Notes under the pieces: generated by a model
Told to the model about the DNA's origin: nothing
The model's database searches: none
The model's input: the letters and a program-made list of their open reading frames with translations, nothing else
In this document: positions 9,000-12,341 of the stretch, one piece after another
Position numbering within the stretch: the first letter of the stretch is position 1
Layout: each line of letters opens with the position of its first letter
Position numbers and translations under genes: made by a program
Assembly: GCA_000004695.1 (NCBI GenBank)
Contig: CM000153.2
Coordinates: 1,920,001 to 1,984,000 of the forward strand
Direction of reading: 5' to 3'
Source of the DNA: Dictyostelium discoideum
Taxonomy: Eukaryota
DNA: 64,000 nucleotides

Positions 9000-9680
9000 A
9001 TGAAGATTTTTATAAGAGGTAAAGGTTATTATATGGGATTGGAAGAAAAGATAGAGTTAAATGTTGAACCAATAGATACAATACTAAAATGTAGAGAATA
9101 TACTGGTGGTAATAAAACATTTTTCGATAGGGAAGGTAGATTATTAGGTTTATATGAGCAGTTTCAAAGTAGTGGTTTAAAAGAAGGTGATACAATTGAC
9201 ATTTGTTCATTTCCATTAGAGATTGCTTTTCTAACTTTTATATTACAAATACTTCAAGTTAAAGGAAATAATCATTTAGAAATAAATAGACTTAGAACAA
9301 AATTATTCAATAAAACTATTGATAATAAAATATATTCATCTCAATTAGATAAAATGAAACATTTATTTAATGATAGAGGTAATTTTCTTATAAAAAAACA
9401 AAAAAAAAAAAAAAGAAAGAATCATATTTTATTTTAAAAATACAATTAATTAATAATTAAATATATATATCATTTTATAAAAATAAAAGTGCCAAATGAT
9501 ATTTTAGAAAATGTATATTCAGATTATATTAAATATGATAGTATAGATAGGGATCCACTTCACCACTTTATAAAAAGAGTTTTTAATGTTAATAAAAATA
9601 ACAAACAAATTTTAGCTTCACCGAAATTAATTTCTCAAAAAGATGTTATAGATTTAGATAATAATAATAAAAATAAAAAT

Positions 9681-9758
<78 letters not shown>

Positions 9759-10109
9759 AATAATAATACTAATAGTAATGCAGGTTCAAACTCAATAACG
9801 GATGAAGAAGATGATCTAACTCAACCAGAGGGTGACCCTATTTTATTATTAGAGTCCAGCAATACTATACAAACAGAACAAACAGAACAAATACAACAAC
9901 AATTAATGAAACCAATGGAGGATATCACATTTGAGGTTATATTGGATGATGGAAAGAAATTTATATCACACAATAAAGAGCTTTTGGATAAATTAAAAAA
10001 GATTGAGGAATTAAATTGGACTTTAGCAAGGATAGTATCTGCTAAAGTTACTATATTACCAAAAACTGTAATTTTAAGTAATAACATTAGTAGTAGTAAT
10101 AGTAATAAC

Positions 10110-10182
<73 letters not shown>

Positions 10183-12341
10183 CACAAACATCTCCAAACC
10201 TAAAACAACAAATATCACCAACTAAAACAACAACAACGACAACTAATACAACATCCACAACAATAAATAAAATAAATACACCAACTAAAGATATTTCTTG
10301 TTTAAATATATCCACACCAAAAACAACATATAATATAAATAATACACCACCATCAGCTTTATCAATAAATAGCGCAAATTCGATAAGTTCAGTAAATTCA
10401 GTAAATTCAGTAAATTCATCATTTAATTACAACATTGAAGGTGTTGATGACGAATCAACAGATTTGGAAGATAATGATCAAGTATTTACTGATACAGAAG
10501 AAGATGAAAATGATCGTTATAAGGTTAATAATAATTTAGAAAATTCATTTAAACGTGAGCTTACAGAAGTTATTAGATGTGATACTGATGATTTTGAAGT
10601 TTATAAGAGATCTAAAAATGGTGATGATGTGGTTATATCTTCTCAAAGCTATACTTATAATTCAGCATCACAACCATTACCAACAACAAATGAATTGACA
10701 ACACCACAAATATCACCAAATAGTTCAACTTCAATGGTACCCGCCACCACCACCACCACCACCACCACCACCACTAATACTACAACAACAAAAACAACAA
10801 CATCTCAATTAACACCAACTAAAAAGAATTCATTACCAATTTTAAATTTTGATAATAATATACCAATTAATGGTGATATTAGAAAAGCTATTGAATCAAA
10901 TAATGAAAATAAAATAAAAGAGAAAAAATATAAACCAACATTTCAAGGACAACCAGTTTCATTTTTATTGGCTCTATATGAATTACGCGCAACACAAGAT
11001 ACTCATTTCAATTTAGAAGATGTAAAAGCAGAGGCACAGAAATTTACAGATGTTGAAGTTCGTAACCGTGATAGAAAAGGTGATAATGCATTTCGTAATG
11101 CATTATCTATGTTATCTCAATTAATCTCTAGAAAATTAATTAATTTCGTTAGGGAGGAAGATTTATATTTGACTAAAGAAGGTTGGGATTTTACAAAACC
11201 AATTTATCCATATATGCAAGATTTTAAAGAATTTACAATGATAAATAAAACAAAAATGGATTTGGCTCAAGATAAAGTAATGATTCTCGTTGATAGTTGT
11301 GAAAATTTCAAATCCGATATATTAAGAAATCTTCGTGAGAAAGGAATTTTTTGTATGGAGATGTCTTTACCTTCTAGTGATTTCTTATTTGTGAAATATA
11401 AAGAGGGATTTCAGGATGACATAAAGAATTTGGAGTTTTATCCATACTTGTTTGAAAGAAAGACTTGGAGTGATTTCAATTCATCAAGAAAGGATACTAG
11501 AAATATTCGTCAAAAATCAAAAATGAAATCTTATGATAAAATTAAAAAATCATTTTATATCATCGAAGGTGATGAAATATTACAAACTAATTTACCAATG
11601 GATACATTGAAATGTCATTTGGATCAATATACACTAATGGAAGGTTTTACAATAATTAGATCACAATCACTTATCGATACATGTACCCAACTTGCAATCG
11701 TTGCAAAATTATTATCTGACGACCCACATTTATCAACTAGGGATCAAGATTCTATGTGTAATCTATTGGAATTTAGAAATCAAGTTTTAAATTCAAGAGG
11801 TGGTAATACAAAAGAATCTTATGACCAATTTCAAGATGAAACTAGATCCGTTATAATTTCAAATTCAAATATGGGTGAAATGATTAGAGTTTCAATTTCT
11901 AAAGAACAATTTAAAGAGTACATATTATCACCACTCTATAGAGAAACTGTTAAATCCAAATTGGATGATTTTTACAATGAAAGGAAATTATTACTCTTTG
12001 AATCATATGAATCATTAAGAAAAGAAATTTATTCTCATCATAATCTTTTATTTAAAGGTTTTTTAACTTCCGTTGAAAAAGGTTTAGATATTAGTAATAT
12101 TGGTTATCGTTCAGAGAATTTATTACTTTCCGATTACATTGATAATCAAACTATAAGTTATAATCTACTTCATATTTTATTAACATTTGATTTTCAAACA
12201 ATTACACATTTTAATCAAGCAACATTATCAAATATCAGAAGTACTTCAACTTTAAATTCAATTGTTCAAAGTTGTTTAGATTTTCCAAATCCATCAACAA
12301 CTGTTTATAATAAATTAATTGCAAAACCAGTTGGTAAATAA
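9000..12341 (+). CDS. Large protein (about 1076 aa) carrying an ERCC4/XPF-family nuclease-fold domain (Mus81/Eme1-like). Two exons: 9000..9378 and 9490..12341.
   Basis: Donor GTAATT at 9379, acceptor AG at 9488-9489 (phase 1+2, GTG=Val). The middle region aligns block-for-block with the XPF nuclease domain found in this same window: ILVDSCENFKSDILRNLREKGIF...LPSSDFLFV...LFERKTWSDF...KKSFYIIEGD versus IIIDSHEFKSSLPVVLHNNGYEI..LEVGDFVLS..CIERKSVSDL...NPILLIEFD. The ERK motif and both flanking Asp are retained. The first residue of the GDF motif is Ser. Long poly-Asn, poly-Gln and poly-Thr linkers are typical of Dictyostelium. Confidence 0.55.

Follow-up and report, generated by a model that had tools for sequence, protein, structure and literature searches.

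Positions 9000 to 12341 of a 64,000-nucleotide stretch of the Dictyostelium discoideum genome (GenBank assembly GCA_000004695.1, contig CM000153.2, positions 1,920,001 to 1,984,000 of the forward strand; this whole stretch is hereafter the window) hold a two-exon gene that likely encodes a Mus81 paralogue of a distinct protein family, in which a ubiquitin-like head and a novel C-terminal domain enclose a Mus81-type core. The best reading of its relatives is that this family is patchily distributed and apparently undescribed, and that the product probably cuts DNA in a structure-specific manner, in connection with ubiquitin signalling. Its catalytic core is of the ordinary Mus81 type, so the enzyme itself is of a known kind. 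A first-pass annotation, made from the letters of the window, had described the gene as coding for a 1076-residue protein with an ERCC4 (XPF/Mus81-type) nuclease fold, and the spliced translation has the same length of 1076 amino acids; no identical entry was found for this exact sequence in the protein collection searched. The target gene and its predicted domains, all on the forward strand, are laid out as follows.

9000..9378, forward strand: exon 1, residues 1-126 and the first base of codon 127; the ATG lies behind a poly-A tract
9000-9215, forward strand: predicted ubiquitin-like domain, residues ~1-72, within exon 1; the helical part of the N-terminal module begins after it
9379..9489, forward strand: intron of 111 nt, GT..AG, 8% GC, with the GT donor at 9379 and the frame restored across it
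9490..12341, forward strand: exon 2, with the stop codon at 12339-12341
9490..9605, forward strand: end of the N-terminal module, residues 127-165, containing DPLHHFIKR, i.e. the conserved D-P-x-x-H-F-I-x-R
Residues ~176-600, forward strand: low-complexity linkers, poly-N and poly-T, flanking the motif at 262-315
9894..10055, forward strand: short motif, residues 262-315, ...FEVILDDGKKFISHNKELLDKLKKIEELN..., apparently dictyostelid-specific
10950..11246, forward strand: predicted winged-helix domain of Mus81 type, residues 614-687, then a long linker helix, 689-712
11268..11720, forward strand: ERCC4 nuclease domain, residues 720-870 (Pfam match 727-861)
11292-11303, forward strand: catalytic residues D728/E731
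11376-11381, forward strand: S756-D757
11454-11462, forward strand: E782-R783-K784
11472-11474, forward strand: D788
11880..12272, forward strand: family-specific C-terminal alpha/beta domain, residues 924-1054, sitting where Mus81 has its tandem helix-hairpin-helix (HhH2) domain; the tail then reaches the stop codon

An ERCC4 nuclease domain with a complete active site

The proposed nuclease fold was confirmed by a Pfam match to the ERCC4 domain (PF02732) at residues 727-861, with an E-value of 4.9e-21; its score of 75.5 bits, where 24 is the cut-off, lies far above what chance would give. In the numbering of the spliced protein the motifs read V-D728-S-C-E731, S756-D757-F758, E782-R783-K784-T-W-S-D788 and I-I-E819-G, and thus lie at about residues 722-820; the range of about 590-700 given at first had been counted within the second open reading frame (ORF) and is ~127 too low. 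The window protein carries the GDXn-ERKX3D signature and the upstream V-D-x-x-E, apart from the replacement of Gly by Ser756. We counted conservation across 138 aligned Mus81-type and ERCC4 nuclease domains: 137-138 of them agree at each of the columns of D728, E731, D757, E782, R783, K784, D788 and E819, and at every one the window protein carries the consensus. The ERK and the two Asp residues that the first-pass annotation saw as retained are indeed present, and with them the complete set of metal-binding and catalytic residues.

The same annotation was right that Ser stands in the place of the Gly ahead of the catalytic Asp, and wrong to call that Gly invariant: the column holds Gly in 131 domains, Ser in five and Ala in two. 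Ser is found at this position in four sequences outside the family, one of them a weevil protein named MUS81 by NCBI. Because Ser also occurs in an insect protein of that name, the SDF variant is real but not remarkable, and by sequence it gives no sign of inactivity. At the Cys of D-S-C-E most sequences have Arg, zebrafish Mus81 has Cys and human Mus81 has Gly. Of the 14 other family members aligned, 13 share the intact catalytic residues of the window protein. The Polysphondylium violaceum orthologue (P0006, KAF2074779.1; row 7 of A2, an alignment of 15 family sequences) has AGN for GD and ERI for ERK, with the remainder conserved, the C-terminal domain included.

Placement of the core on the Mus81 branch

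The window sequence used alone matches MUS81 chains in the Protein Data Bank (PDB) weakly, with an E-value of 0.004. We therefore report comparisons that rest on A2, the basis of both a PDB profile search and an AlphaFold2 model. The A2 profile matches MUS81 at ~1e-22, the Pyrococcus Hef nuclease at 8e-10, Aeropyrum XPF at 6e-9 and human XPF at 0.3, and EME1 gives no match at E<=1 in that search. The AlphaFold2 model of residues 596-1076 reaches a mean predicted local distance difference test score (pLDDT) of 85.6 and a predicted template modelling score (pTM) of 0.87; a two-sequence alignment gave a pLDDT of 31.6. Foldseek comparison of structure with the PDB ranks MUS81 best (E 3e-10, 19-23% identity), followed by Hef (E 1e-6, 20-21%), archaeal XPF (E 2e-6, 21-24%) and EME1 (E 1.5e-5, 10-11%), with FANCM and XPF weaker still (12-20%). 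Profiles and the AlphaFold model further reveal a predicted winged-helix domain of Mus81 type upstream of the nuclease, which the first-pass annotation had missed. By profile and modelled structure, the core of winged helix followed by nuclease is Mus81-type, and neither XPF-type nor EME1-type. An earlier suggestion of an unusual member of the Mus81/Eme1 family therefore holds for its Mus81 half, given the profile and Foldseek matches, and fails for the Eme1 half, given the intact catalytic residues and the missing profile match. The first-pass annotation had also aligned the protein with the XPF gene of the window (51161-54139), and the likeness is real at the level of motifs; overall similarity is weak, at 25% identity over 112 amino acids in a single BLASTP comparison (E 0.01), and tblastn between the two gives nothing at E<=1.

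Outside the core, the protein departs from the Mus81 plan. The N-terminal helix-hairpin-helix (HhH) domain of Mus81, HHH_8, has no Pfam match at E<=10 in the window protein, the C-terminal HhH2 domain, EME1-MUS81_C, has none in the window protein or its relatives, and no Pfam match to the superfamily 2 (SF2) helicase-like N-terminal domain of XPF was found in the window protein. Three control proteins, P0012 (named MUS81 by NCBI), P0019 and P0092, all matched HHH_8, MUS81-like_WH and ERCC4, and two of them EME1-MUS81_C; from this Mus81 set of Pfam domains the family members match ERCC4 alone, and the family profile aligns to PDB MUS81 over the nuclease domain only. As first proposed, the N-terminus and the long C-terminal extension match no part of XPF, Mus81, EME1 or FANCM. 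The top hit is Mus81, but the domain order of the window protein differs from that of Mus81, and the finding stands. Canonical D. discoideum mus81 has been assigned to another locus, DDB_G0276519, and knocked out, giving a mutant that is not cisplatin-sensitive (PMC2730050, PMC8529158), and xpf, the XPF gene of the window, is DDB_G0284419 (PMC2730050). Because the published mus81 lies elsewhere, a point that the first-pass annotation had advised checking, the window gene is a second Mus81-type gene of D. discoideum.

The ubiquitin-like head and the C-terminal domain

Iterative searching with jackhmmer from the N-terminus of an Acytostelium member defined an N-terminal module of ~180 residues shared by dictyostelid, spiralian and diatom members of the family. 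A hidden Markov model (HMM) of this module built from dictyostelid sequences only finds proteins of Lingula (104 and 58 bits) and Batillaria (63 bits), with E-values set for 1.8e9 sequences. In the N-terminal alignment A3, eight of 12 members match Pfam ubiquitin, with a best E-value of 5.9e-6; the A3 profile reaches PDB ubiquitin chains at ~1e-3, and hhalign pairs A3 with ubiquitin at 87.5% probability and an E-value of 3.6e-6, with window residues 15-66 in the aligned region. The first ~70 positions of the module are on this sequence evidence predicted to be ubiquitin-like, an assignment made for the window protein through the family alignment, and the helical remainder has no known relative. 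The window protein itself matches the module profile with 18 bits (E 1.2e-7 in a one-sequence search) over residues 44-164, collinear across the exon junction at residues 126/127. Because this alignment spans the splice junction and the last conserved motif of the module, D-P-x-G/H-x-F-I-x-R across the family, lies in exon 2, exon 1 is part of the target gene.

At the other end of the protein, AlphaFold2 confidently models residues 924-1054 as an alpha/beta domain. A jackhmmer search from window residues 901-1076 found the domain in 20 of 152 other retrieved proteins, all 20 of them family members, and in none of the inspected Mus81-type matches. Profiles of the dictyostelid and spiralian C-terminal domains align by hhalign over 117 columns with 94% probability and an E-value of 1.4e-7, and every top non-dictyostelid match of the dictyostelid profile is a family member. 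Most members have a C-terminal domain of neutral or acidic net charge, and this speaks against its simply replacing HhH2 in DNA binding. A separate short motif lies between the low-complexity linkers. Its pattern, F-x-V-x-L-x-x-G...L-x-K-L-K-x-I-E-x-x-N, was found in dictyostelids only (P0004-P0008) by jackhmmer from the Acytostelium motif; residues 262-315 of the window protein were matched to it by eye, and the search did not retrieve the window protein.

A family shared by dictyostelids, Spiralia and a diatom

Exhaustive HMMER searching of 1.84 billion representative sequences was used to collect the family, of which word-indexed homologue searches recovered almost none. Seven matches below 1e-30 extend from the winged helix through the nuclease over the entire C-terminal region; next in rank come several very long proteins of 1700-2440 amino acids with the same coverage, and after those proteins of Mus81 length (~450-650 amino acids). 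Dictyostelid members come from Tieghemostelium lacteum, Heterostelium album, Acytostelium subglobosum (two), Polysphondylium violaceum, Synstelium polycarpum (three) and Dictyostelium dimigraforme. Members from Spiralia belong to the molluscs Mytilus, Pecten, Pinctada, Haliotis and Batillaria, the annelid Owenia and the brachiopod Lingula, and others lie in a metagenome-assembled genome (MAG) of a diatom, Bacillariaceae, and on unassigned environmental contigs. UniProt automatically names several of them 'Crossover junction endonuclease MUS81'. The architecture therefore reaches well past D. discoideum, into other dictyostelids, Spiralia and the diatom MAG, which sets aside the earlier option of a lineage-specific nuclease; the finding is genuine and of wider interest than a curiosity confined to one lineage.

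The family domain order runs from the ubiquitin-like and helical module through low-complexity linkers to the winged helix, the ERCC4 domain and the novel C-terminal domain, and members outside the dictyostelids extend over 1000-2400 amino acids. Long spiralian members (P0010, P0011, P0013, P0017) carry a B-box-like zinc finger ahead of the winged helix and several ubiquitin-interacting motifs (UIMs), and end in a CCHC zinc knuckle with a coiled coil behind it, a tail also present in environmental members. The environmental proteins P0123 and P0050 combine RanBP2-type fingers with the same zinc knuckle, and P0123 additionally has a RING finger and a UIM. None of these accessory domains, nor any recognisable ubiquitin-binding motif, was found in the dictyostelid proteins. 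Because the non-dictyostelid members add UIMs, fingers of the RanBP2/Npl4 zinc finger (NZF) type and RING, the family is repeatedly tied to modules of the ubiquitin system. Among the dictyostelids, the T. lacteum orthologue (LODT01000042.1, L001 6001-8427) is a single-exon gene for an 808-residue protein with a standard GDF and without the ubiquitin-like module. It lies 194 nt from its upstream gene; tblastn with the N-terminus gives nothing at this locus, which shows no synteny to the window.

Some members occur as duplicates. In Synstelium the genes of P0003 and P0007 have consecutive numbers (gene1473/gene1472) and are maybe neighbours, and Acytostelium has the pair P0005/P0008. The Lingula P0152 model contains two N-terminal modules and may be a fusion of tandem copies.

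We constructed a neighbour-joining tree of the nuclease domain, in which, out of 200 bootstraps, 3 recover the whole family, 191 recover Spiralia and 95 recover dictyostelids; pairwise nuclease-domain distances exceed one substitution per site and are saturated. Since the tree fails to recover the family, the case for its monophyly comes from the architecture held in common and from a small set of signature residues. In 17 of 18 members ERKx is followed by Trp or Phe; Leu, Met, Val, Ile, Ala and Gly are the six commonest residues there in the other 120 sequences. Pro stands four residues before ERK in all 18 members compared with 17 of the 120 others, and Phe precedes the I-I-E-G strand in 15 of 18. 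These residues are common to dictyostelids, Spiralia and one environmental member, and together with the two shared accessory modules they favour, at the level of sequence, common descent over convergence. Full-text literature searches found no paper describing such a Mus81 paralogue, and the sole reported 'second MUS81' is a plant pseudogene.

Alternative readings

Several observations weigh against a distinct family of active, ubiquitin-linked Mus81 paralogues. Taken by itself, the nuclease domain does not group the family into a single clade by neighbour joining. The head of the window protein gives no Pfam ubiquitin match of its own, and three dictyostelid gene models, those of T. lacteum, P. 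violaceum and one further dictyostelid, lack the N-terminal module. By HMM the link between dictyostelid and spiralian C-terminal domains is weak, at <=19 bits, and leans on hhalign and on the ranking of matches. Nucleases of the XPF family as a rule depend on HhH2 and on a partner subunit, neither of which is evident in the window protein. Finally, loss of the catalytic Asp and Lys in P. violaceum may mean that catalysis is not essential in the clade, or that this copy is decaying.

The main competing explanation, which we judge unlikely, is that the window protein serves dictyostelids as the functional equivalent of EME1/Mms4, pairing through the nuclease domains with the Mus81 of DDB_G0276519 and dispensing with its own active site. 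XPF-family nucleases do dimerise with a related subunit, and the degenerate active site of the P. violaceum protein would suit such a role. A published meiosis-gene inventory (PMC5381635, Table 2) points the same way: it lists MMS4/EME1 for all three dictyostelid genomes it covered, those of D. discoideum, D. purpureum and P. pallidum, but not for Acanthamoeba, which has MUS81. This pattern fits the dictyostelid distribution of the family, and the gene behind the MMS4/EME1 entry may be this Mus81 paralogue. Should dictyostelids lack a canonical EME1, the case for a partner subunit would become much stronger. The window protein and 13 of 14 other aligned members nevertheless keep their catalytic residues, the protein has a winged helix that EME1 does not have and is without the EME1-MUS81_C HhH2 that mediates pairing of Mus81 with EME1, and its likeness to EME1 is confined to a Foldseek identity of 10-11% with no profile match at E<=1. 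Slightly less probable still is a catalytically dead pseudo-nuclease with a DNA-binding or scaffolding role, in which the change of Gly to Ser and the loss of HhH2 would be signs of enzyme decay. Ser beside a metal-binding Asp, where Gly is near-universal, the missing HhH2 domain and the one clearly degenerate orthologue are all as this explanation would have them, but the same Ser occurs in four sequences outside the family, including the insect protein named MUS81, no acidic or basic catalytic residue has been lost, and the T. lacteum orthologue has GDF.

Two simpler accounts of the gene carry far less weight. Exon 1 could be a separate small gene that is not joined to the nuclease ORF, and the three dictyostelid models without an N-terminal module would be in keeping with such an artefact; we regard it as very improbable given canonical splice sites, a maintained frame, an N-terminal module that runs collinearly across the junction to DPLHHFIKR in exon 2, and the presence of module and nuclease in a single protein in Acytostelium, Synstelium, Spiralia and the diatom MAG. 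Hardest to credit of all is a merely divergent orthologue of canonical Mus81. MUS81 provides the best PDB matches, and rule-based naming in UniProt gives several members that name, but a mus81 gene has been published and knocked out at DDB_G0276519 (PMC2730050), HHH_8 and EME1-MUS81_C are not found although present in the controls of Mus81 architecture, and the additional N- and C-terminal domains are common to Spiralia and the diatom MAG. A Mus81 paralogue of a distinct family therefore remains our preferred reading of the gene.

Genomic context

The window is extremely AT-rich and has a gene content typical of D. discoideum. Two 2-kb blocks have a GC content that is exceptionally low even by the standard of this genome: 4001-6000 (14.1%) and 40001-42000 (12.7%, with a strong positive GC skew of 0.34). 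The following genes were mapped around the target.

6940-8739: RasGEF gene, neighbour of the target
12445-14814, reverse strand: filamin-repeat/actin fusion gene, convergent with the target
16430-17314, 19365-20258 and 22363-23256, reverse strand: three tandem GH47 mannosidase ORFs
51161-51679 and 51773-54139: XPF homologue, ~39 kb from the target

The target stop codon (12339-12341) lies ~100 nt from the end of the convergent filamin-repeat/actin gene, leaving a very short intergenic region for both 3′ ends. The GH47 ORFs encode 294-297 amino acids each, are spaced ~3 kb apart and match glycosyl hydrolase family 47 (alpha-mannosidase) with E-values of ~1e-83, over profile positions 73-375 only; the set looks like the tandem triplication of a multi-exon gene. 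Between these ORFs and the XPF homologue lie genes for a BEACH-WD40 protein, a Myb protein, a phosphodiesterase (PDE), a sterol reductase, an ING-like PHD protein and a proteasomal AAA ATPase. Because the intervening genes are unrelated and form no repair-gene cluster, the proximity of the target to XPF looks coincidental.

Discussion

To our knowledge, Mus81 is generally treated as a single-copy and uniform protein, with HhH, winged helix, nuclease and HhH2 domains in that order, obligately paired with EME1. Canonical Mus81 uses its HhH domain to dock on scaffolds such as SLX4, HhH2 normally provides dimerisation and DNA binding, and nucleases of the XPF family pair a catalytic subunit with a related one. 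From what is known of XPF and Mus81, the ERCC4 domain of the window protein would cut branched DNA such as flaps, forks and nicked junctions, with D728, E731, D757, E782 and D788 predicted to coordinate Mg2+, R783 and K784 to assist, and the winged helix to aid binding of DNA or of a partner. Judged by anatomy, the ubiquitin-like module takes the place of the Mus81 HhH and may dock on partners that recognise ubiquitin, while the C-terminal domain takes the place of HhH2 and may mediate association with itself or with a partner. If the C-terminal domain replaces HhH2, pairing and substrate positioning must work differently from the canonical enzyme. UIMs, RanBP2/NZF-type fingers and RING in the non-dictyostelid members would link the family to ubiquitin signalling at DNA damage.

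A broader proposal, which we offer tentatively as possible, is that these proteins form an ancient and so far undescribed lineage of eukaryotic nucleases in the XPF/MUS81 family, apart from XPF, Mus81 and the non-catalytic ERCC1, EME1, FANCM and FAAP24. Such a lineage would predate the split of Amoebozoa and animals from stramenopiles and would since have disappeared from vertebrates, insects, fungi and plants. Its members would function without HhH2 domains, with the novel C-terminal domain and the ubiquitin-like module, joined by UIM, NZF and RING in the long forms, coupling junction cleavage to ubiquitin signalling.

The existence of another Mus81-type gene, whose different architecture is conserved in the genetically tractable and DNA-damage-resistant Dictyostelium and in many marine invertebrates, raises the questions of whether an ERCC4 nuclease can function in the absence of HhH2, what the C-terminal domain contributes and whether a built-in ubiquitin-like domain steers a junction-cutting nuclease. 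The paralogue could mask phenotypes of the D. discoideum mus81 knockout, which is not cisplatin-sensitive, and the automatic naming of family members as MUS81 could mislead inventories of meiosis and repair genes.

Comparison with known systems places the family among structure-specific nucleases at several distances. FAN1 and other ubiquitin-guided repair nucleases offer an analogy of function only: they combine a structure-specific nuclease with modules of the ubiquitin system, as the long members do, but the FAN1 nuclease fold is unrelated (VRR_nuc) and the dictyostelid proteins have the ubiquitin-like domain only. Archaeal Hef and XPF carry HhH2, in Hef together with a helicase, and are without the winged helix, the ubiquitin-like domain and the C-terminal domain. 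XPF/Rad1 shares an ERCC4 domain with ERKxxSD, whereas the window protein has neither the SF2 helicase-like N-terminal domain nor HhH2. The likeness to EME1/Mms4 lies in the ERCC4-type fold, in being the second Mus81-related protein of a genome, and in the P. violaceum orthologue, which has lost catalytic residues as EME1 has; in contrast, the window protein keeps these residues, has a winged helix and does not share the C-terminal HhH2. Closest is Mus81 itself (human MUS81 and S. pombe Mus81; PDB 2ziu, 4p0p and 9f98, and 2mc3 for the winged helix), the best match by profile and by structure, with the same order of winged helix and ERCC4 domain and the same catalytic constellation of VDxxE, GD-type Asp and ERKxxxD. 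Where Mus81 has an N-terminal HhH and a C-terminal HhH2, the window protein has the ubiquitin-like and helical module and the novel C-terminal domain, and its family is further set apart from Mus81 by the Trp or Phe of ERKx-Trp/Phe and the Pro four residues before ERK.

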